This document shows positions 2,621 to 19,390 of a stretch of DNA of 20,534 nucleotides, piece by piece. The notes below the pieces were generated by a model, which saw only the letters and a list, made by a program, of their open reading frames with translations, searched no databases and was not told where the DNA came from. Made by a program: the position numbers and the translations under genes. Origin of the DNA: a virus (lineage: Duplodnaviria; Heunggongvirae; Uroviricota; Caudoviricetes). How positions within the stretch are numbered: the stretch's first letter is position 1; every line of letters starts with the position of its first letter. The DNA lies in the IMG/VR virus record IMGVR_UViG_2718218127_000002, positions 1 through 20,534 of that record, one strand, 5' to 3'.

Positions 2621-2732
2621 AACTGAAGTTGCCCTGAAAATGAAATTTTTTTGCACAACCGCAGAACTTTTCCGCAGGGCATCAGTCTTAATTAGTGCCA
2701 CTGCTTTTCTTTGATGTCCCCATTTTGTGGAG

Positions 2733-2777
2733 CCCATCAACCCCGCCATTTCGGTTCAAGGTTGATGGGTTTTTTGT
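2733..2777 (+). terminator. Putative rho-independent terminator downstream of ybjL
   Basis: cccatcaacc ... ggttgatggg inverted repeat followed by ttttttg. Confidence 0.5.
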
Positions 2778-2833
2778 TGCCTGAAATTTATACTGTTTAA
2801 AATCATGATGTTAGAAGCACTGTTTTTTAACGA

Positions 2834-7700: not shown

Positions 7701-7821
7701 CGCGGGATTTTTTGACAGCAGCAGCCAGTTCTCTTGAACTGGCCTGCGCAGATCGAAATGGGCGGGTGAGCTTGTCAACCGCATTAAGAATGACCTGCAG
7801 ACGCAGGTTGTTATCACTCAT
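4744..7821 (-). CDS. T: Tail tape-measure protein (P2 gpT-like)
   Basis: 1025-aa ORF; N-terminal coiled-coil-like region rich in Q/R/A/L, central hydrophobic Ala/Leu/Gly-rich repeat block, position upstream of U and D; ATG start at 7821. Confidence 0.85.
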   Translation of the reverse strand: MSDNNLRLQVILNAVDKLTRPFRSAQASSRELAAAVKKSRDAIKQLDQAGSSLDSFRKLQAENQKLGDRLNYARQRANLLSQELGAMGPPSQRQVVALGRQRLAVQRLEERQKKLQQQTALVRAELYRAGISAKDDAGATARLARETSRYNQELSKQEARLKRLGEAQRRMNAARASYARSLEVRDRIAGAGATTTAAGLAMGAPVMAAVKSYTSMEDAMKGVAKQVNGLRDDNGNRTARFYEMQDAIKAASEQLPMENGAVDFAALVEGGARMNVANPDDSWEDQKRDLLAFASTAAKAATAFELPADELSESLGKIAQLYKIPTRNIEQLGDALNYLDDNAMSKGADIIDVMQRLGGVADRLDYRKAAALGSTFLTLGAAPEVAASAANAMVRELSIATMQSKSFFEGMNLLKLNPEVIEKQMTKDAMGTIQRVLEKVNALPQDKRLSAMTMLFGKEFGDDAAKLANNLPELQRQLKLTAGNDALGSMQKESDINKDSLSAQWLLVKTGAQNTFSSLGETLRQPLMDILYTVKSITGALRRWVEANPELTGTLMKASAVVAAVTVGLGTLAVALAAVLGPLAVIRLGFSVLGIKTLSSVTAAVTRTSSALSWLAGAPLALLRRGLASSGNAAGLLTAPLSSLRRTASLTGNVLKTVAGAPVALLRSGLSGLRAVAVMFMNPLAVLRGGLAAAGTVLRVLASGPLAMLRVALYAISGLLGALLSPIGLVVTALAGVALVVWKYWQPITAFLGGVVEGFKAAAGPISAAFEPLKPVFQWIGDKVQALWGWFTDLLTPVKSTSAELQSAAAMGRRFGEALAEGLNMVMHPLDSLKSGVSWLLEKLGIVSKEAAKAKLPESVTRQQPATVNADGKVMMPSGGFPSWGYGFAGMYDSGGYIPRGQFGIVGENGPEIVNGPANVTSRRNTAALAAVVAGMMGVAAAPAELPPLHPLALPAKGGEAMVSRAATVPPVQRIEAPMQIIIQTQPGQSAQDIAREVARQLDERERRLKAKARSNYSDQGGYDA

Positions 7822-7879
7822 CGTTGGCCCCGCTTCTCTGAATCGCTTTATACCGCCATTCCAGCACTTCGGTCAGGCG

Positions 7880-8497
7880 TGCATGGTGGACAGCTGGGAA
7901 GTCTGGACCGACTTTCATGCACTGGCCCTGCGCCCGTTTGGCTGGCGCGAAGTATGGATCGGTTATGACCCCGCAAAAGGTACTCAGAACGGCGACAGTG
8001 CCGGATGCGTGGTGGTGGCACCGCCAGCCGTACCGGGCGGTAAATTCCGCATTCTTGAGCGTCACCAGTGGCGCGGGATGGACTTCCGCGCTCAGGCTGA
8101 CGCCATCAAAAAACTGACCGAACAGTACAACGTGACTTATATCGGTATCGACTCAACCGGCGTTGGTCACGGGGTTTACGAGAACGTGAAAGCATTCTTT
8201 CCTGCCGTCCGGGAGTTTGTCTACAACCCCAACGTTAAAAACGCCCTGGTGCTCAAGGCCTACGACATTATCAGCCACCGCCGTCTGGAGTTTGACGCCG
8301 GACACACCGACATTGCGCAGTCATTCATGGCAATCCGTCGCGCCACCACCGCCAGCGGCAACCGCCCGACCTATGAAGCCAGCCGCAGCGAAGAAGCCAG
8401 CCATGCCGATCTGGCCTGGGCAACAATGCACGCACTGTTTAACGAACCGCTGCAAGGCGAGTCCGCCAATACCAGCAATATTGTGGAGATTTTTTGA
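7880..8497 (+). pseudogene. P: 5'-truncated terminase large (ATPase/nuclease) subunit gene, P2 gpP-like, C-terminal nuclease domain only
   Basis: Open frame encodes only about 200-260 aa with RNaseH-like nuclease-domain acidic motifs (WIGYDPAKG, YIGIDSTGVG, SHADLAWA) and an ATGA overlap with the Q start, as in P2 P-Q; the N-terminal ATPase domain is absent and the frame runs into the divergent T gene start. The 5' boundary is approximate. Confidence 0.7.
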
Positions 8498-9522
8498 TGG
8501 GAAAGAGTAAGAAGAACCGCGCTGCGGCGACGAAACAGATCCAGCTTAAAAGTCAAACTACAGCCGAAGCATTCAGCTTCGGCGATCCCGTTCCTGTTCT
8601 GGACCGCCGAGAACTGCTGGACTATGTGGAATGCGTACAGACAGATCGCTGGTATGAGCCGCCAGTAAGCTTTGACGGACTGGCGCGCACCTTCCGCGCC
8701 GCCGTGCATCACAGTTCACCAATTGCGGTGAAATGCAACATTCTGACCAGTACCTACATCCCTCACCCGCTGCTCAGCCAGCAGGCTTTTTCACGTTTTG
8801 TGCAGGACTATCTGGTATTTGGTAACGCCTACCTGGAGAAACGCACGAACCGCTTCGGTGAAGTTATCGCCCTTGAGCCTGCTCTGGCAAAATACACCCG
8901 ACGCGGGTTAGACCTGGATACCTACTGGTTTGTGCAATACGGTATGACAACCCAGCCGTATCAGTTCACGAAAGGCAGCATTTTTCATCTGATGGAACCG
9001 GACATTAACCAGGAGATCTACGGCCTGCCCGGCTATCTTTCTGCCATTCCGTCCGCCCTGCTCAATGAGTCCGCCACGCTGTTCCGCCGCAAGTATTACA
9101 TTAACGGTAGTCATGCAGGCTTCATCATGTACATGACCGATGCTGCGCAGAACCAGGAGGACGTGAACAACCTCCGCAATGCAATGAAAAGTGCCAAAGG
9201 TCCGGGTAACTTCCGCAACCTGTTTATGTACTCGCCTAACGGCAAAAAGGACGGGCTTCAGATTATCCCGTTGTCAGAGGTGGCGGCGAAGGATGAGTTT
9301 TTGAATATCAAGAACGTGAGCCGCGATGACATGATGGCTGCGCACCGCGTGCCGCCGCAAATGATGGGGATTATGCCTAATAATGTTGGAGGGTTTGGGG
9401 ATGTGGAGAAGGCCGCAAATGTGTTTGTGCGCAATGAACTTTTGCCATTACAGAAACGCATGGAGGAGTTAAACCATTGGCTGGGTGAGAAAGTTATTGC
9501 ATTTTCATCCTATTGTTTATGA
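8497..9522 (+). CDS. Q: Portal protein (P2 gpQ-like)
   Basis: 341 aa from ATG at 8497 (GGAG 8 nt upstream, overlaps P stop); size and position match P2 Q downstream of P. Confidence 0.8.
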   Translation: MGKSKKNRAAATKQIQLKSQTTAEAFSFGDPVPVLDRRELLDYVECVQTDRWYEPPVSFDGLARTFRAAVHHSSPIAVKCNILTSTYIPHPLLSQQAFSRFVQDYLVFGNAYLEKRTNRFGEVIALEPALAKYTRRGLDLDTYWFVQYGMTTQPYQFTKGSIFHLMEPDINQEIYGLPGYLSAIPSALLNESATLFRRKYYINGSHAGFIMYMTDAAQNQEDVNNLRNAMKSAKGPGNFRNLFMYSPNGKKDGLQIIPLSEVAAKDEFLNIKNVSRDDMMAAHRVPPQMMGIMPNNVGGFGDVEKAANVFVRNELLPLQKRMEELNHWLGEKVIAFSSYCL

Positions 9523-9531
9523 GATATAAAT

Positions 9532-9573
9532 TGGTGGCCTTAATTATATAGCCACCATATTGCTTTTTATTTT
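9532..9573. terminator. Putative terminator between convergent Q and TIR gene
   Basis: tggtggc / gccacca inverted repeat with AT-rich loop followed by tattgctttttatttt on the + strand. Confidence 0.4.
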
Positions 9574-10379
9574 ACTCTAAAGGCATCATCGGCTTTATGT
9601 GGTATAGGAGCATAACGCTCGGTACTTACTCGATGTAGCACCGCAAATATATTCAAAGGTGAACCATCCTTTAACCTAAGAGAAACATACATTGGCATCG
9701 TTGGTGTTAACCCCCGATTTAGGCCAACAGTGGCACCACTTACTTTCATACCATTTTCTAAAGATGCATTTTCAATAAACCCCTGAGTGAATGTGCTTTC
9801 TCCATTGACCATAACAACAACATCATCATGCTTAATTGTATTATCCATAATCATCATAAAATCAGCAATTGGTTCTAAAAAATCCATTGCTGATAATTTC
9901 ACTATCTTACCCCCATCACCATCCTTAATATCATAGGAGAGGTTTGAATACTTCTCAGGATTAGGAATATACGTATTTTGTTGATTAATGACATCTATAA
10001 TTTGTCTTATTGCCACATCGATCCCATACGAATAAAGATCAATATATAGCGTTTGAGTAAGCAGAGCAGGCAAGGATATATTCTGGCAACGTATTGGTAT
10101 AAATTTACACTTCCCGGACGATGCCTTAATTAAAGCATTTTGCCATTCCATTTTTACCATGTTACTTGCCAAACTATTTTCTGTGACAAAAAAGAAAAAG
10201 AACGATACATTCTCCATTCCTAAATTCATCTTGTCAATAATACCCTCTCCGGGTTGGATAGACCAAGAATCGTAGAATACGTTATCACGCCCATAAACAT
10301 CTGCTAGTTTTTCCGCTATAACACTTACAAACCTTTTGTCACGGTGATTATGACTTAGAAAGATCATAGCATGCCCCAT
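9567..10379 (-). CDS. TIR-domain protein with uncharacterised C-terminal domain (candidate defence protein)
   Basis: N-terminal 140 aa show the bacterial TIR pattern: IFLSHNHRDKRFV (betaA/alphaA), NVFYDSWSIQPGEGI, VSFFFFFVTENSLASNMVKMEWQNAL (hydrophobic strand, then Ser-x5-Glu where the catalytic Glu is expected). Start is either ATG 10379 or ATG 10367. AT-rich relative to the phage backbone. Confidence 0.6.
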   Translation of the reverse strand: MGHAMIFLSHNHRDKRFVSVIAEKLADVYGRDNVFYDSWSIQPGEGIIDKMNLGMENVSFFFFFVTENSLASNMVKMEWQNALIKASSGKCKFIPIRCQNISLPALLTQTLYIDLYSYGIDVAIRQIIDVINQQNTYIPNPEKYSNLSYDIKDGDGGKIVKLSAMDFLEPIADFMMIMDNTIKHDDVVVMVNGESTFTQGFIENASLENGMKVSGATVGLNRGLTPTMPMYVSLRLKDGSPLNIFAVLHRVSTERYAPIPHKADDAFRVK

Positions 10380-10448
10380 TAGAAATTAATGTGTAAGATC
10401 TGCGTAGAGAGTCACCGACAGTGTACCAATAATAATCTTCTGCGCGCA

Positions 10449-10467
10449 ATCGTATCCCCGCCACGCC
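10449..10467 (-). other. cos-like cohesive-end sequence (putative packaging site remnant)
   Basis: Minus-strand sequence GGCGTGGCGGGGATACGAT; the first 13 nt are identical to the 19-nt cohesive end I recall for phage 186 (GGCGTGGCGGGGAAAGCAT; P2 GGCGAGGCGGGGAAAGCAC), 16/19 overall; lies in a GC-richer segment between two AT-rich genes. Confidence 0.45.
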
Positions 10468-10667
10468 TGCCCACTTTATGTAGTGGTTTTCATGCACCTG
10501 CATGACATAAGCAAAAGCACGCCAGTTCTGGCTGGCATCAGCGAAAACGATCGTCATACTATCATGCGATCTCATGCGCCATATGAAGTTTTCCTGACAC
10601 AGCCTTGGGTTGGGATAACACCTAACTCAGGAAGATTTTTTGTGTGTTTGTAACCCACACCTAGAGT

Positions 10668-11837
10668 TTACCAATCCATGTTTGCGGCATTATCCATCTC
10701 ACGAGTTAAGTAATTAACAAATAAGTCCATATTCCTTTCTGATTTCATCGCCTCCGCATAGGTTCCATTAGTTACGTAAGATAGTATTAAAGGACATCCA
10801 GATTCAATATAAATTTTTGCTGGGGACAGTTCTCCCTGCCACAAATTTTCAAGAAAATCGTTAATTAATTGCATTGCTTCAGGTGCCAAAAAATGCACAC
10901 CATTTCCAAACTTGAAACGTTCTTTATTTTCTCGATGAGGCAGCAATAGTGGCACAGCCCCTACACTTGAGTGAAATTCCAATGCTTGCCCATCCTTACC
11001 GAAGGCGCCATGGGCTACAAAATTACGCACCTGTTTTCTGAGTATAAGTAAACGATCATAGAACAATTTTAGACTGGAAGAGTTAATATCAATGGCTAAT
11101 TTGAATTTCTCCCCCCATTCTTTTCCAACTTTATCAGCCACATCATTCCCATTTTTTATCTCACCCTTCAAGATTGCAATAAGAATGAAAACATGCTCGG
11201 TCCAATTGAAAAATGACTCAATTGCAGACGTTGCTAACCACATAGCCTCTCTTCGGAGTTCAATTATCTTATTTGATTGTTCAAAAGTGGATTGTAACAG
11301 GCTGAAAAAATTATCAGACTTAAACTCACTATCAACTTCCAGTTTAGACTCTTGGCCAGCAGCAACTTCATCAAGCTTCTGTTTATATAGCTCTAAAAAA
11401 TAGCAAAACCTATCATAAAGAGAATTAGCATTGTTATTAACATTTAGATTTGAAGTCTTTGCTGCATTGTCTGCAAGCGAGTCAAAAAAATTCGTAGCAG
11501 CTTTAACCCCTGCGCAAATATGTCTCAAAACAGTTTTAGCTTGCTCTATATCATCATCACTCTTGATAAATATATCTAAACCAAGTTTACGATGTTCTAT
11601 AATTACGACAGTCCCATCAATCCGGACTGGGATAGAAAAAGAAATCTTCTCATCAACCCCACGATTTTTAAATTTCAGTAAATCTACCAAAAGAAAATAA
11701 ACGAGATAATACGGAGGTAATGAGTCTCCCAAACCCGAGCGCTTACCCCAAAAATATTCATCAAGCTCGGCAGACTCCATTGTCCCTATGACTCTTCGGA
11801 CGCGTTCTTCAACTTTAGCCAGATCCATTCCCCACAC
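10668..11837 (-). CDS. Hypothetical protein with HEPN-like R-N-x3-H motif (candidate abortive-infection/defence effector)
   Basis: 389-aa AT-rich ORF; motif RNFVAH at residues 271-276 (nt 11010-11027) fits the Rx4-6H HEPN signature with polar residue after Arg; no Walker A, SIR2 or other motif recognised by eye. Start is either GTG 11837 or ATG 11828. Confidence 0.45.
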   Translation of the reverse strand: MWGMDLAKVEERVRRVIGTMESAELDEYFWGKRSGLGDSLPPYYLVYFLLVDLLKFKNRGVDEKISFSIPVRIDGTVVIIEHRKLGLDIFIKSDDDIEQAKTVLRHICAGVKAATNFFDSLADNAAKTSNLNVNNNANSLYDRFCYFLELYKQKLDEVAAGQESKLEVDSEFKSDNFFSLLQSTFEQSNKIIELRREAMWLATSAIESFFNWTEHVFILIAILKGEIKNGNDVADKVGKEWGEKFKLAIDINSSSLKLFYDRLLILRKQVRNFVAHGAFGKDGQALEFHSSVGAVPLLLPHRENKERFKFGNGVHFLAPEAMQLINDFLENLWQGELSPAKIYIESGCPLILSYVTNGTYAEAMKSERNMDLFVNYLTREMDNAANMDW

Positions 11838-11998
11838 CGCCTTTCAATATCACTTAAGGTATTACAGCCAATGACATCGATTAAATACAGCGTAGATAAT
11901 AGGCAACTTGCTACTGTTTTCAAGGGCTTTCTGTTTCAATCCTTAGTTGACCTTGCTGACGCGAGAATCTAGTTCTCACGCCAGCAACGCCCCTGCTG

Positions 11999-12187
11999 CT
12001 AACCGAGAAGATCCATTACACGGTTATATTCATGGGCACGAATTTTCGCCATCAACTCATCAGTCAGCTCTGAAACCCACTGCAGAGCCAGCCCCTTCTC
12101 TTCATCACTACACTCACTAGCCGCTACAAGCTTAAGAAAAAAATCAATGCGCTGGAGCTTCAAAGACTCCAAAAAATAGTCCTGCAT
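11999..12187 (-). CDS. Small hypothetical protein (62 aa)
   Basis: ATG at 12187 preceded by a strong SD (taGGAGGaaaaATG); the longer 96-aa track ORF has no SD. Located immediately downstream of A, in the position of P2 orf91. Confidence 0.5.
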   Translation of the reverse strand: MQDYFLESLKLQRIDFFLKLVAASECSDEEKGLALQWVSELTDELMAKIRAHEYNRVMDLLG

Positions 12188-12340
12188 TTTTCCTCCTATG
12201 ACACCACAAGCAATACTGTATGCATAACCACTGTTTATATTTACAGTATATAATAATCTTACTGATGTAAAACGTTTTTTTACGTTCATCAGCCTGATAT
12301 GCCTGGTATTATTAAGAGCACGAATTGTTAATCCGCGTAA

Positions 12341-14755
12341 TTAATACAGGTTCCGCCACTTATCATCTTCCCACAAACGCTGGTTCCGATAGAAGATACG
12401 CAAGCCTGCTCCTGACGGAATACTGCCGCCGCGAAGGAGTAAATCGACCTCTTTCTCGCTGCCATCAAATCCTCTGGACTTCAGCTCATAGACGAGCTGC
12501 AGTCGCTGATGGTCTGTAATTCGCTGTTTGTAGTCTTTACGCCGTTTCGGTTTAACCAAGCGTAACCTTGCTGCCAGTTCCCGGCGCTCTTTTTTGCTCA
12601 TACTGTGCAGGTAATCGTGCAACTCCTTGTCATCCATGCGGGTAATGTCCGTTCTGGTGTCCCCATCAGCTGATTTATCTTTCTCCTGTTGGTTCAAATT
12701 TTCAGCAAGGGGACAGTTATTGCCACGAGTCCAAGGGGCGCAAGCGCCCTGGTCGGCTGCCGCCTCCTGAACATCAACGGCCTTACGAACCATTTTCCAC
12801 TTCACGGCATGAGTGCAGATCTTGCCCTCTGCAATAGGTGACCAGATGCCATAAATACGAATGCCGTGATCGCCATAGGCGGTCGGCTCTTCGTTGATTT
12901 CATAAGCGGTTCTGATGAGGTGATATTTGCGGGGAACCAGTACGCCGCCCTGCTTCATGATGTAGGTGGCAAAACAACCAGCATCAGCAGCAGCCAGGAT
13001 GGCATCAAGGCGTGGGTTATCCAGTACCGGCGCACCTGCTTTTTTGTCCCCCTGTTGCCTTGCCGCCTGACCAGCCAGCAATCGCAGTTCACGGTAAGCC
13101 TGACGCCCCGGAATGCCAAAGAAGCGGAATTGCTGAACACGATGCAGAGACGCCCAGGCATTAACGTATTCAGCATTATCACGCAGGGATTTCCCCGTTT
13201 CCTTGCTGATCTCGCCAGCCAGACCACGCCCGTCAATGTTCTTACTGATGTATTTCGCGATGTAGCTTGTTGGCGTTCCTTTGCGCGGGTTAATCAACTC
13301 AGACTTAAAGCGCGGCCCAGTGTTATTGCCCAGCTCCTCGCGGTCTTCACGGATGGCAAACTTACGCAGTAATGCAGTGATGGCACGGCGGTCTTTTTTG
13401 CGCATGAAACACAACAGGTGCCAGTGAACTGTGCCGTCATGATGCGGCTCAGCCACCCGCACGCCATACCAGCGCAACCCGGCTTTGTGCATCGCCTTAC
13501 GAAATGCAGCAAACATGCCGACCAGATAATCGCTGCTTTGTCTTACCGTCGCGTTTGTCCAGGTCGGGTTTGGTCTGCCGTTATTGAGCGTGGAATGGAA
13601 ACGTGACGGACAGGTGATGGTGTAGAAAACGGCGCAGTCACCGCGCATTTCCGCGATAAGCTCCAGACCTTTAACACAGGCCATCATCTCATTGCGGCGA
13701 TGCGCCGGGTTGCTGCTGCTGGCGTTTACCACATCCTCCATGTCCAGCGTGTCGCCGTCTTCGTTCACCAGTTCATGAGAACGGAAAAACTCCAGCGACT
13801 TACGGCGCTGCTCACGTTTATGCATCACGGCTTCATAGCTGACATAGGGAGATGCTTTTTTGCTGACCAGGCAGACAGCACGCAACTGCTCTTCCCGCCA
13901 TTCGCAACGCATCTTCCATAATTTCCGATACCACCAGTCGGCGCACAACATACGCGCCAGCGAACCCGGAATGAGTTCATAGGGCACGGGTTTACGGCGG
14001 TTTCTTTTCCGACGGAGTTGCTCAAACGCAGGAGGGATTACATCCAGACGCAGGGTTTCCGCTGCCACCTTTTCCCATGTCTTGCGGATTTCTTCTGGCT
14101 TAACGTCATCGGTGGCATACAAATCACCACAAGCTGCATCAAGGCACATGCTCATATGCGCGGCAACAAGGGTAGACAGGCGCTTCACCTGATCCTGACT
14201 CATTTCAGGCAGGATCAGCAGGCCGTCCAGCCCTTCATGGCTTGCCATAAAGCGAAAAGAAGTGGATAGCTGACTCTCGCGTACATGCTCCAGTCGTTCC
14301 AGACATGGCTTAATCGTCTCACGCAAATAGCGGGAATAAGCCTTTGGCCTGCCCAGGCTGCTGAAGTATTCAATACGTTGCATCAGCGGCTTGCTGATAT
14401 GGGAAGGCTGGGCGTTGACGTCCGCCAGAATGACCATATCCGGATTAAAACGCTGCTGCTCATGCGCCAGCTTTGCCCGACTAATGAGCTTATCCTGCTC
14501 GATTTCGCGCTGGACAGGATCACGGGATTCATTAAAGAAATAACGCTCCCAGACCTGATCACTCAGCGCCTCACGGCGCAGCTGTTCCTGCTCGTTATCG
14601 GCAGCGTACAGAGTGATCAGGTTTGAAAGCGCAGAAACCGGCGCAACTTCCGCCGGGTCCAGATAAGGGTTAATGGCCTTTTTCGGGCTGCTCCATGAGA
14701 ATGCTGCTGCGACCTCGTTAAAGCCGCTGCAGTTGTTCATATCAGCATGGCTCAT
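12341..14755 (-). CDS. A: Replication initiation endonuclease (P2 gpA-like rolling-circle initiator)
   Basis: 804-aa ORF with HUH-type motif (HWHLLCF) and downstream tyrosine motif ([12 protein letters not shown]) characteristic of P2 A-type nicking proteins; ATGA overlap with the upstream methyltransferase gene. Confidence 0.82.
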
Positions 14756-15609
14756 GCACGCACTCCGTACACGGCAGAACTATCCACGCCACGCGAAGGA
14801 TCAAATCCCACCCAGCAGCGCGGCCCGGAAACAGCGATGATTTCTGTTGCTGATTTACACTCGCCAGCTGCCACACCGATGCTGCGTTTTACCTTGATAT
14901 AGTGGTGAGTAAAATTGCGATACAGCGAACGAATCAGGGATGTGTCACTGTTAGAAACAATGACCGGATGTCCTTCAGATGATCGATGTTCAAGAACGGA
15001 TGCCAGGTGATACTGGTCATCTTCAGTGAAACCATCAGTGTGATAGCCGGAAAACGTACCGTCATAAGGCGGATCGCAATACACCACATCCCCCGCCTTC
15101 AACATCGCCAGCGTTTCATCAAAGCTGGCGCAGATAAACGTTGCCCGCTGGGCTTTTTCTGCAAATGCGCGAATTTCTTTTTCAGGGAAATACGGATTTT
15201 TATAATTCCCGTAGGGAATGTTGAAATGTCCGCTCTTGTTATAACGACATAACCCACGGTAACCGTGACGATTGAGATACAGGAAATATACTGCTTTCAT
15301 GAAATCAGTAATTTCAGATGAGTAATTAAACTCCTGCCTTATGTTGTAATAAGCCACCTCCCTGTTTGCTTCCTCAAATAAGACTCTGGCACGAGATATA
15401 AATGATTCGCAATCAGCGGCAATCTTTTTATAGAGGTTGATTAAATCAGGATTAATATCAGCAACCAGATAGCTGGGGTAATCCGTCGCCATCATCACAG
15501 CACAGGAACCCGCGAAAGGTTCAACCAGTCGCGGGCCAGCAGGAAGGTGTTTTTTCAGTTCGGACATAATGGCGGTTTTATTACCCGCCCATTTCAGGAT
15601 GGTGCTCAT
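14752..15609 (-). CDS. Dam-like DNA N6-adenine methyltransferase
   Basis: Motif I FAGSCAV and catalytic motif IV DPPY ([10 protein letters not shown]); start assigned to ATG 15609 with GGAGGTG SD ([11 protein letters not shown]), typical Dam N-terminus; stop overlaps the A start. Confidence 0.8.
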
Positions 15610-15833
15610 ACAGCACCTCCGTTGTAATGTTTGCCTTTCAGCTCTGCGATTTCCTGGCAGGTAATGCAAAGCTGCACTCCCGGAATGGCGCGGCGTCGTG
15701 CTGGCGGAATTGGCGCTTCACATTCAATACAAAGCACGCGAGACACGCCCGGTGTTTTGGCACGGGCAGCACGAATATGGCGCTGGCGTTCTTCTTCAAC
15801 GCGCTGCTGTACGAGATCCATTGCATCAGCCAT
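15606..15833 (-). CDS. TraR/DksA-family C4 zinc-finger protein
   Basis: 75 aa with CIECEAPIP...x17...CITCQ four-cysteine pattern; overlaps the methyltransferase start by 4 nt. Confidence 0.65.
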   Translation of the reverse strand: MADAMDLVQQRVEEERQRHIRAARAKTPGVSRVLCIECEAPIPPARRRAIPGVQLCITCQEIAELKGKHYNGGAV

Positions 15834-18445: not shown

Positions 18446-19390
18446 ATGACTGAACCAACCAATAAAGATAGCGAAATAAAAAAACACCTATTAGAATTTC
18501 TTGATTCACAGTCTGAAAATATAGCAAAACACTTCTACTCTCATATAAAAGACTTAATAGAAGCAGGAGAGCTTTCTGAAGCTCATAATAACCTAGCGCT
18601 AATTGAAAAATACATAACTAGGCCACCGATGGATGAAGAACCCAATATAAATGAAAATAAAGCCAATAAAAGAAAAAATGTAAAATCACTTGAACCTAAT
18701 AATTATGTAGAACATATAATACAATTAGAAGAACGAAACAGCATATTAACTCTACAGTTAGAGCATTATACTCAGGATCTTAATAGAAAAAACGCAATAA
18801 TCGAAAACAACGTAAAACAAATTAATTCATTGATTAGTGAAAATAAGGAACTCCGTAGCCAAGTACAGCAACAAAGAATCGATGATAAAATCCCCACCTA
18901 TGTTAACGATGTTAAATCAGATCTTGGTAGTGATGACAAACATTTTATATTGATGTCTATTATCTGGTCTATTGCAGGGGTATTTTTTGGCTTCCTTGCA
19001 GTAGTATCTGCTTTTTTTACATTATACATGAACTTAGATTTAAAAAATCTCACTAACCTTCAGTTAATATATATCTTCACGCGAGGATTAGTTGGAATCG
19101 CCATTCTTTCATGGCTATCATATATCTGCCTTAGTAACTCAAAAAAGTACACACATGAATCGATCAGGCGAAAAGATCGTCGACATGCTTTGATGTTTGG
19201 TCAAGTTTTTTTGCAGATATACGGTTCTACAGCAACTAAAGAGGATGCAATAGAAGTCTTTAAGGATTGGAATATTTCAGGTGACTCTGCATTTTCAGGT
19301 CAGACAGAGCAACCACCGAGTTTTGCGTCATTTTTGAATACAATCAAAGACAAAGTTAAAGTAACTGGAAGTGATAAAGAAACAGATTAA
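18446..19390 (+). CDS. Hypothetical coiled-coil protein with two predicted transmembrane helices
   Basis: 314-aa AT-rich ORF 11 nt downstream of the repressor gene; heptad-like N-terminal region and two hydrophobic stretches (ILMSIIWSIAGVFFGFLAVVSAFF and GLVGIAILSWLSYICL). Confidence 0.65.
   Translation: MTEPTNKDSEIKKHLLEFLDSQSENIAKHFYSHIKDLIEAGELSEAHNNLALIEKYITRPPMDEEPNINENKANKRKNVKSLEPNNYVEHIIQLEERNSILTLQLEHYTQDLNRKNAIIENNVKQINSLISENKELRSQVQQQRIDDKIPTYVNDVKSDLGSDDKHFILMSIIWSIAGVFFGFLAVVSAFFTLYMNLDLKNLTNLQLIYIFTRGLVGIAILSWLSYICLSNSKKYTHESIRRKDRRHALMFGQVFLQIYGSTATKEDAIEVFKDWNISGDSAFSGQTEQPPSFASFLNTIKDKVKVTGSDKETD

Follow-up and report, generated by a model that had tools for sequence, protein, structure and literature searches.

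Probable independent single-gene abortive infection candidates, a TIR protein and a HEPN-family protein, in the two slots of a P2-type prophage hotspot

The cos-proximal interval between the portal gene Q and the replication gene A of P2-like phages is a described hotspot for variable cargo, and P2 itself carries old and tin there (PMC9122126). Here we consider that interval in a 20,534-nucleotide stretch of DNA from a virus of the Caudoviricetes (IMG/VR record IMGVR_UViG_2718218127_000002, positions 1 to 20,534), which we call the window. The interval holds two genes, one for a 266-residue protein with a TIR domain followed by a beta-sandwich and one for a 386-residue protein of the HEPN type, and our favored reading, to which we give a probability of about 0.6, is that these are two independent single-gene candidates for abortive infection (Abi), one in each slot of the hotspot, rather than a single TIR-HEPN system. 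The original prediction had described two intact, AT-rich genes on the same strand in the Q-A hotspot, and this description holds: both open reading frames (ORFs) are present on the minus strand, the flanking genes are Q and A by Pfam, and the GC content is 0.35-0.43 over positions 9500-12500 compared with 0.51-0.59 on either side. As expected for cargo of this hotspot, the contents of the interval between gpA and gpQ vary among otherwise similar P2-family prophages. The prediction had left two options for the pair, a TIR signaling system with an RNase effector or two independent single-gene systems, and it is the second that is favored by the co-occurrence of the genes, by their other partners and by the spacer that separates them.

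Independent distribution of the two genes

The locus region is 100% identical to that of Escherichia coli S43 (NZ_CP010237.1). The complete genomes of E. coli (n = 5,426) offer a first view of how often the two genes travel together. Of these genomes, 9 have the TIR gene, 10 have the HEPN gene and 3 have the two together; in other words, 3 of the 16 genomes that carry either gene carry both, the TIR gene being without the HEPN gene in 6 of its 9 genomes and the HEPN gene without the TIR gene in 7 of its 10. Even the three joint occurrences (S43, EA7 and 45E) represent one assembled lineage rather than three events, since their DNA is at least 99.9% identical and since one terminase protein is common to EA7 and 45E and one portal protein to S43 and EA7. 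Each gene keeps to its own side of the interval and changes its companions. The TIR gene always adjoins Q, and its other partners are DUF4145 plus DinI (four genomes), a restriction endonuclease fragment with ASCH and DinI, or a 111-aa ORF plus DinI. The HEPN gene always adjoins the small ORF beside A, its other partners are a 557-aa ORF or a three-gene cluster, and one further arrangement is given in Table S5A of PMC9122126. The 557-aa protein that occupies the Q-side slot in strain 1283 (locus L002, 2234-3907) has no Pfam match, and the three-gene cluster in that slot in strain L725 (L181, 1256-3134) includes a STAS-like protein.

Is the pairing kept anywhere outside E. coli? Of 80 genome loci of the HEPN family, drawn from a wide range of phyla, none has a TIR-family gene within 8 kb, and no cluster of neighbors recurs in more than 5 of 77 loci. 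At the 80 loci of the TIR family, which come from metagenomes, members of the HEPN family within about 8 kb are limited to two copies of the present E. coli locus, and no cluster of neighbors is found in more than 8 of 79 loci. Judged by the co-occurrence of homologues, as the original prediction had proposed, the two genes do not behave as one system: beyond the 3 of 16 E. coli genomes, none of the 160 loci outside this prophage lineage joins them.

The layout of the interval tells us more. The spacer between the two genes (Table 1) is kept also in the common DprA-PRTase/DinI prophages, and it is matched next to a DinI-like gene, between the DinI-side and Q-side slots, in more than 1000 E. 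coli genomes; because the spacer is constant whatever cargo lies on either side, the hotspot has two slots. Most P2-like prophages have a DinI-like gene in the A-proximal slot (slot 1), which the HEPN gene replaces here, and the TIR gene fills slot 2 on the Q side. The spacer folds somewhat better than shuffled sequences (z = -2.3), and the stem of its terminator-like hairpin (GCCCGCCAG/CTGGCGGGC) is perfect in the NRZ99027 variant and almost perfect in the remaining variants. We think that the spacer looks like a recombination joint for the swapping of cassettes. Taken together, the E. coli counts, the absence of linkage elsewhere and the spacer leave a TIR-HEPN signaling pair poorly supported. 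A 75-aa ORF (10348-10575, minus strand; phrog_28685) was considered as a third gene of the locus; it overlaps the conserved spacer, is unannotated in RefSeq for S43 and is probably not a gene, and PHROG 28685 itself appears to consist of ORFs called across the spacer.

The 386-residue HEPN-family protein

The longest ORF of the HEPN gene (10668-11837, minus strand) begins at a GTG and gives the 389 residues that had been predicted; the start is better placed at an ATG at 11828, supported by RefSeq and by an AAGGCGG Shine-Dalgarno-like box 8 nt upstream, which yields 386 residues. The HEPN-type motif that had been recognized in this protein survives the correction. In 42 homologues (42-67% identity), R268, N269, H273 and G274 of RNFVAHG never vary, and in the long helix that precedes the motif T210 and E211 are invariant and W209 and H212 nearly so in the same set. 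The protein thus has the Rx4-6H pattern with a polar residue after the arginine, conserved across its family, as expected of a HEPN protein. An AlphaFold2 model of the 386-aa protein (predicted local distance difference test score, 88) has an alpha/beta N-terminal domain, a long helical core and a mixed C-terminal region, and the modeled core is consistent with the helical bundle of the HEPN fold. Both the N- and the C-terminal domains are conserved in virtually every full-length relative.

This is a large family, with more than 1245 matches in 90% clusters, and an exhaustive search of 50% representatives finds at least 1000 with E ≤ 1e-3 and at least 755 with E ≤ 1e-10. Complete matches are nearly all 380-400 aa long and align over their full length, and they come from many bacterial phyla. 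The 386-aa protein has no PADLOC, NCBIfam or meaningful PHROG match and no Pfam family at threshold, and the 120 homologues listed are all without a recorded Pfam domain. The named HEPN defense families (ApeA, AbiD/F, AbiU2, AbiV, Csm6/Csx1, RnlA/LsoA, MNT-HEPN and PD-T4/T7/Lambda) were tried and gave no profile match at threshold. Additionally, there is no match to SLOG, Macro, CARF or SAVED at the sequence level, no ATPase domain is detected by Pfam, no sequence relatives of the family were found among solved structures, and a Foldseek search of the model against the Protein Data Bank (PDB) returned only coiled-coil noise, with no convincing match for the N-terminal domain.

How new is this protein? 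The original prediction had called the locus undescribed, which needs to be qualified: the 386-aa protein is listed as a hotspot 'hypothetical' in Table S5A of PMC9122126, and DefensePredictor gives WP_032248694.1 a log-odds of 10.6 as a 'predicted novel defense gene', outside the systems tested in that paper, and reports a remote similarity to Csm6/Csx1 (PMC13092281). A look-up of the WP accessions in the literature found none in main texts, and in supplements only the Rousset table and the DefensePredictor list.

The 266-residue TIR protein

For the TIR gene, the longest ORF (9567-10379, minus strand) encodes the 270 residues of the prediction, and the start is corrected to M5, giving 266 residues, on the basis of RefSeq and of every homologue, all of which begin MIF[LIV]SHN. 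The assignment of a TIR domain is secure, with a match to TIR_2 (PF13676) of 81 bits compared with a cut-off of 28 (E = 1.3e-22) over residues 6-117 of the 270-aa ORF. In an alignment of 47 family members, the invariant columns are S5, D10, K11, F31-Y-D33, W35, Q38-P-G40 and E74. By alignment, E74 is at the position of the catalytic glutamate of TIR domains that cleave nicotinamide adenine dinucleotide (NAD), making the protein a putative enzyme, and it lies inside the aligned TIR core in a HMMER alignment to Cat1. When PDB sequences are searched with a profile, the top ranks go to Cat1 (E = 2.8e-9), a TIR-TPR protein, AbTIR and PdTIR, and SpbK is marginal (E = 0.009); the closest solved sequences thus include the NAD-consuming TIR proteins Cat1, AbTIR and PdTIR.

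The C-terminal domain is a beta-sandwich. The idea that this sandwich is a sensor shared with other kinds of effector was explored with a profile search, which retrieved TIR fusions only, although the search was word-seeded and distant cases may escape it. The family has about 945 homologues, essentially all of approximately 258-280 aa with TIR_2 and the same layout, from Enterobacteria, Vibrio, Burkholderia, Bacteroidota, Bacillus plasmids and marine metagenomes. The PADLOC and NCBIfam matches of the protein (TIR-NLR, PDC-S66, ThsB and retron-TIR) cover the TIR domain only and fall far under the family thresholds, and neither protein of the locus matches a PADLOC model beyond the TIR domain. 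The absence of SIR2, SLOG and Macro features is likewise confirmed, as neither protein matches such models.

Members of the TIR family are found as small, solitary cargo. In lambdoid prophages, for example, a member is the lone cargo between ead/DUF3850 genes and ninB, and neighbors elsewhere include Vsr, methylases, HsdS and antitoxin genes. A full-length TIR-beta-sandwich homologue of 40% identity is one of the seven genes of an 8,793-bp RepL plasmid of Bacillus sp. DX3.1 (L179, 6903-7706), a setting that fits a self-sufficient cargo function.

Relation to known systems

Cat1 ends in a CARF domain that binds the second messenger of type III CRISPR systems. As the closest solved TIR sequence (PDB 9mud), it resembles the TIR protein in having an N-terminal TIR domain and a C-terminal sensor in only 263 aa, but the C-terminal part of the present protein is a beta-sandwich, encoded outside any CRISPR context. 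A second comparison is with SpbK of ICEBs1 from Bacillus subtilis, a TIR NADase that is triggered by the phage portal and aborts infection via NAD+ depletion (PMC11984713, PMC12847820). The TIR protein is of the SpbK type in kind: a single gene of a mobile element encodes some 267 aa that comprise a TIR domain with a catalytic-type glutamate and a small non-TIR domain of presumed sensor function, and no partner is conserved. The two differ in that the sensor is N-terminal and the TIR domain C-terminal in SpbK, the reverse of the order here, and in that the present beta-sandwich is without a detectable relative outside its own family; no homology to SpbK beyond the TIR domain was found. Three single-protein TIR systems (TIR-V and TIR-VI as well as TIR-IX) have been validated in E. 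coli by Wang et al. 2024; in these E. coli single-gene systems only a short TIR domain is recognizable, protection depends on the TIR active site, and the triggers are portal or tail-fiber proteins (PMC11350192). The same survey contains 20 clusters that were inactive when tested and 32 untested ones (PMC11350192), and the 266-aa protein may or may not be one of the E. coli single-protein TIR systems already tested. TIR-based defense is also known from Thoeris, from the TIR+2TM+1TM system that phage AC1 carries in this same P2 Q-A hotspot and from a TIR-NLR in the analogous hotspot of P4 satellites (PMC9122126), but the present locus has no ThsA-type effector, transmembrane partner, STAND NTPase or TPR domain. 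Membership in Thoeris was rejected in view of the lack of SIR2, SLOG or Macro matches, the lack of a conserved neighbor in 79 loci and the weakness of the ThsB matches (E ≥ 7e-4).

For the 386-aa protein, the most instructive comparison is with HepS, a solo HEPN Abi protein of the Salmonella prophage Gifsy-1 that senses tail-tip proteins and cleaves tRNA anticodon loops (PMC13043305). Both are single prophage-borne HEPN proteins with a canonical Rx4-6H motif, without partner or antitoxin, and both are presumed to be sensor and killer in one. However, members of the HepS family are shorter than 250 aa and essentially a HEPN domain alone (R100-H105), whereas the protein here has 386 aa, places its motif at R268-H273 and bears additional N- and C-terminal domains; we therefore do not assign it to the HepS family, from which it is set apart by the description of HepS and not by sequence. 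The anticodon nucleases PrrC and RloC and the Abi protein ApeA (PMC3710099) provide a further likeness, as the 386-aa family consists of HEPN RNase candidates that are often found within or behind restriction-modification (R-M) operons and toxin genes and that would follow an Abi logic. Membership in the PrrC/RloC group, which is defined by an N-terminal ABC-type ATPase and a C-terminal HEPN domain, was rejected: the 386-aa protein has no ABC-ATPase (AAA_13) domain and stands alone in the E. coli prophage hotspot, and the R-M linkage of its homologues is not a defining feature. It differs from ApeA in giving no match to HEPN_Apea, Abi or PADLOC models. Finally, AbiA is a chain of 597 residues in which a C-terminal HEPN domain is fused to an Abi polymerase of the reverse-transcriptase type (PDB 8oz7; PMC11077055); the 386-aa protein lacks a polymerase, and the identity is only 15%.

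A proposed mechanism and its alternatives

We hypothesize that each protein would act alone. The 386-aa protein would be an inactive oligomer at rest, to be switched on when its own accessory domains sense a phage cue; once active, the HEPN domain would cut RNA, with tRNA or mRNA as the probable target, in a metal-independent manner, stopping translation and aborting the infection, by analogy with the solo HEPN proteins HepS and ApeA and with PrrC and RloC. In the 266-aa protein, the beta-sandwich would bind a phage protein, causing TIR domains to cluster and hydrolyze NAD+, again with the outcome of an aborted infection, and here SpbK and the single-protein TIR systems of E. coli would be the precedents. 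What the analysis shows directly is how the genes are built, which domains and conserved catalytic-type residues they encode, that they are distributed as independent modules and that they keep company with mobile elements and defense islands, whereas a role against phages, the RNase and NADase activities, the triggers and the oligomerization are inferred.

A number of observations weigh against two self-sufficient Abi genes. The trace of a HEPN domain in Pfam is below threshold, the match being to Csx1_HEPN at E = 0.051 over the motif region, and the beta-sandwich has generic structural matches only, making its sensor role a guess. Promoter candidates in the region do not exceed the expectation from shuffled sequences, and no convincing promoter was found for the TIR gene. 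Neither protein is matched in 50,697 sequenced phage records. The three co-occurrences in E. coli exceed the approximately 0.1 estimated for random assortment among some 1,100 such hotspots; however, they represent one lineage. In addition, the TIR family adjoins HEPN-superfamily genes of three families, namely the 386-aa family, DUF4145, which is a HEPN family (PMC3710099), and Hypoth_Ymh. Such adjacency is adequately explained by chance, as HEPN genes account for a few per cent of the neighbors in defense islands; about 140 immediate neighbors of the 386-aa family, for example, include two genes of the HEPN_Apea type and one or more of the Abi_2 type. Chance clustering within defense islands would account adequately for all three families, as an explanation and not as proof. 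In one uncultured lineage, a 255-aa gene of the Hypoth_Ymh HEPN family extends 4 nt into the start of the TIR-beta-sandwich gene (L131:1243-2010, L133:591-1358, L141:476-1243 and L143:7237-8004; assigned by Pfam scan in L131, L133 and L143 and by coordinates and clustering in L141), and this looks like a real two-gene operon.

Among the alternatives to two self-sufficient genes, the one that survives best, though we consider it unlikely, is that the 386-aa HEPN protein is a back-up guard, silenced by a neighboring module in the manner of PrrC and EcoprrI and firing when a phage disables that module, and that it stands alone or orphaned in the P2 prophage. This proposal draws on the genomic context of the family. 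In 57 of 72 loci the HEPN homologue shares its strand with the gene upstream of it, and the two often overlap or are only a few nucleotides apart; the close upstream genes are parts of R-M systems or toxins such as hsdR, HsdS, Type ISP R-M, Mrr, YgjP-like, RES, Fic, HipA, Abi_2 and AAA_13, with UvrD also recorded; other neighbors include DRT reverse transcriptases, SIR2_2 and HEPN_Apea. In a Klebsiella integrase island a homologue follows hsdM-hsdS-hsdR at a distance of 13 nt, on a conjugative element another follows hipBA at 1 nt, and on a plasmid a third lies between a type III R-M/DUF2384 unit and an AAA-ATPase/helicase pair, which suggests that members of the family are often attached to the end of other defense or toxin operons. 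Homologues directly after hsdR (13-nt gap), directly after hipA (1-nt gap) and overlapping the antitoxin-like DUF2384 gene can be seen at loci L005-L010 (6001-7185), L015 (6001-7155) and L180 (5989-7152). These surroundings, as a defense context of the HEPN family, also count in favor of our preferred reading. HEPN nucleases linked to R-M operons are, moreover, a known theme (PMC3710099). Yet the upstream partners are mutually unrelated, so that no single interaction surface is plausible, the E. coli prophage hotspot contains no R-M partner, and the protein has no regulatory ABC-ATPase domain of the PrrC/RloC type.

Somewhat less probable is that one or both genes have nothing to do with defense and are addiction or stress toxins, or decaying cargo, that hitch-hike in the hotspot. 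This view could appeal to the defective state of the prophage in the window and to the roughly one quarter of P2 hotspots that hold non-defense cargo such as partition systems (PMC9122126). Decay and dispensability are, however, difficult to reconcile with two intact ORFs that are at least 99.5% conserved across unrelated strains, with two large families that keep their full-length architecture across phyla and their catalytic-type residues invariant, and with genomic contexts dominated by defense and mobile-element genes.

Could the TIR protein instead work for something other than itself? E. coli has TIR virulence factors such as TcpC, and a Tcp-like role against the Toll-like receptor (TLR) signaling of animals, or a ThsB-like role as a generator of a signal for an effector elsewhere in the host, might be entertained on that account and on account of the weak PADLOC matches to ThsB (E = 7e-4 to 0.04). 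We regard both roles as improbable. No neighbor or effector is conserved in the 79 loci, and the order of an N-terminal TIR domain and then a sensor-like sandwich does not favor either role; an effector encoded in trans would not travel with such small mobile cargo; and TLR subversion would make no sense in the lambdoid prophages, 8-kb plasmids, free-living Bacteroidota and marine metagenomes in which the family is found. Just as improbable, in our estimate, is a looser form of partnership in which the TIR protein licenses whichever HEPN nuclease is its neighbor, by an NAD-derived signal or by contact, with interchangeable RNase effectors that have no known signal-binding domain; the adjacency to three HEPN families, including DUF4145 in four other E. 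coli prophages, is what suggests it, but DUF4145 is without the TIR gene in 25 of the 29 genomes that bear it and is on the opposite strand. Least likely of all is the Thoeris-like scheme of one system in which the TIR protein makes an NAD-derived signal that activates the 386-aa HEPN RNase, for although the genes are adjacent on one strand, occur together in three genomes and encode a HEPN protein whose N-terminal domain has invariant charged residues, and although the adjacency to three HEPN families speaks for this scheme too, it is opposed by the solitary occurrences of each gene, the lack of linkage elsewhere, the hairpin and conserved spacer between the genes, the absence of a recognizable ligand-sensor domain or of a solved ligand-sensor fold that convincingly matches the 386-aa model, the presence of NAD-consuming effectors among the closest solved TIR sequences, and the weakness of the ThsB matches (E = 7e-4). 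We thus return to two independent single-gene Abi candidates as the preferred reading.

Features of the locus and its prophage

The coordinates of the features are collected in Table 1. The hairpin between the convergent stop codons of Q and the TIR gene is, from its sequence, probably a terminator that both genes share; it was not called by the terminator scan because its loop is 12 nt long.

Table 1. Positions of the two genes, their domains and the surrounding elements in the window
Feature	Positions	Strand	Basis or remark
Portal Q	8494-9522	+	Phage_portal match (Pfam)
GGTGGC...GCCACC hairpin	9533..9556	.	Read from sequence; between convergent Q and TIR stops, followed by a + strand T-run
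TIR-beta-sandwich gene, 266 aa (RefSeq WP_000576799.1)	9567..10367	-	ORF and RefSeq start; Q-proximal slot
C-terminal all-beta domain, residues ~126-266, and stop codon	9567..9992	-	Presumed sensor or binding module
TIR domain, residues ~1-125	9993..10367	-	Pfam TIR_2
Putative catalytic Glu74 (MEWQNA) codon	10146-10148	-	Invariant in 47 family members
Inter-slot spacer, ~145 bp	10441..10585	.	Alignment of five hotspot variants; kept whatever cargo flanks it
Terminator-like hairpin plus GCTTTTGC	10519..10538	-	Scan; downstream of HEPN gene, upstream of TIR gene
HEPN-family gene, 386 aa (RefSeq WP_032248694.1)	10668..11828	-	ORF and RefSeq; A-proximal slot
C-terminal region, residues ~284-386, and stop codon	10668..10979	-	Ends in near-invariant ANMDW
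Predicted HEPN helical core, residues ~134-276	11001..11429	-	RNFVAH motif inside
RNFVAH motif (R268-H273)	11010-11027	-	Read from sequence
N-terminal alpha/beta domain, residues 1-130	11439..11828	-	Invariant R30, P38, Y40, Y41, E60, K61, R80, K81
Sigma-70-like promoter candidate, TTGAAA-16-TATTAT, 10/12	11896..11923	-	Scan; 68 nt upstream of HEPN start
62-aa P2-backbone ORF (WP_001154428.1, phrog_698)	11999..12187	-	Conserved, adjoins gene A; outside both cassettes
Replication protein A	12341-14755	-	Phage_GPA, E = 1e-127

The prophage in the window is of the P2 family, 186 type, with the gene order D, U, tape measure, gpE remnant, truncated terminase, portal Q, the TIR/HEPN locus, gene A, a Dam-type methylase, DUF5347, CII, CI, an ORF of unknown function and integrase. 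It is defective (7712-8497 and 7814-8065): after the tape measure gene, a gpE remnant is fused to the C-terminal half of the terminase. The prophage therefore lacks all that would lie between, from the remainder of gpE, through the other tail genes and the head genes, to the terminase gene's 5' half. The truncated terminase consists of Terminase_6C only and is mislabeled in RefSeq as an 'oxidoreductase' pseudogene, and the sister prophages of EA7 and 45E retain the full terminase and scaffold genes. A full-length gene for the small RNA RybB is found at 2700-2778 (plus strand; 105 bits), adjoining ybjL-like host DNA (935-2620); its position just beyond the ogr/D end of the prophage indicates that the prophage inserted beside rybB, and RybB is the only match in an Rfam scan of the window and lies outside the locus. 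Directly upstream of gene A is a D12-class N6-adenine methyltransferase gene (14752-15669, minus strand), which is common in this group of prophages and could be relevant to self-protection or anti-restriction. Between cI and int, a 314-aa ORF in a very AT-rich stretch (18446-19390, plus strand; GC content 0.32-0.35) encodes a protein whose N-terminal half is coiled-coil and for which two or three membrane helices are predicted. The protein has neither a Pfam match nor a meaningful solved relative (its single match with E < 0.1 is to a designed repeat protein, with no stretch passing alone), and the ORF may be a second moron or an exclusion gene of the prophage.

Implications

Both genes of this locus are of known kinds, and current ideas are not overturned, single-gene candidates of both kinds being common by now. 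What distinguishes the 386-aa family is that it represents a distinct and widespread architecture, flagged computationally before, that no model describes: at least 755 clusters (50% identity, E ≤ 1e-10) are without a Pfam, NCBIfam or PADLOC 2.0 model. If the 386-aa protein protects, this widespread family would join the short list of self-sufficient HEPN immune nucleases, and its two uncharacterized accessory domains may reveal new ways of sensing infection or of guarding R-M systems and toxins. The TIR protein, in turn, would add to the compact NADases of the TIR type that have a sensor domain of their own, and could help in comparisons of the ways in which TIR proteins are triggered. In closing, the locus illustrates how the P2 hotspot is laid out in two slots with a spacer between them, and how cassettes appear to be swapped at the spacer.

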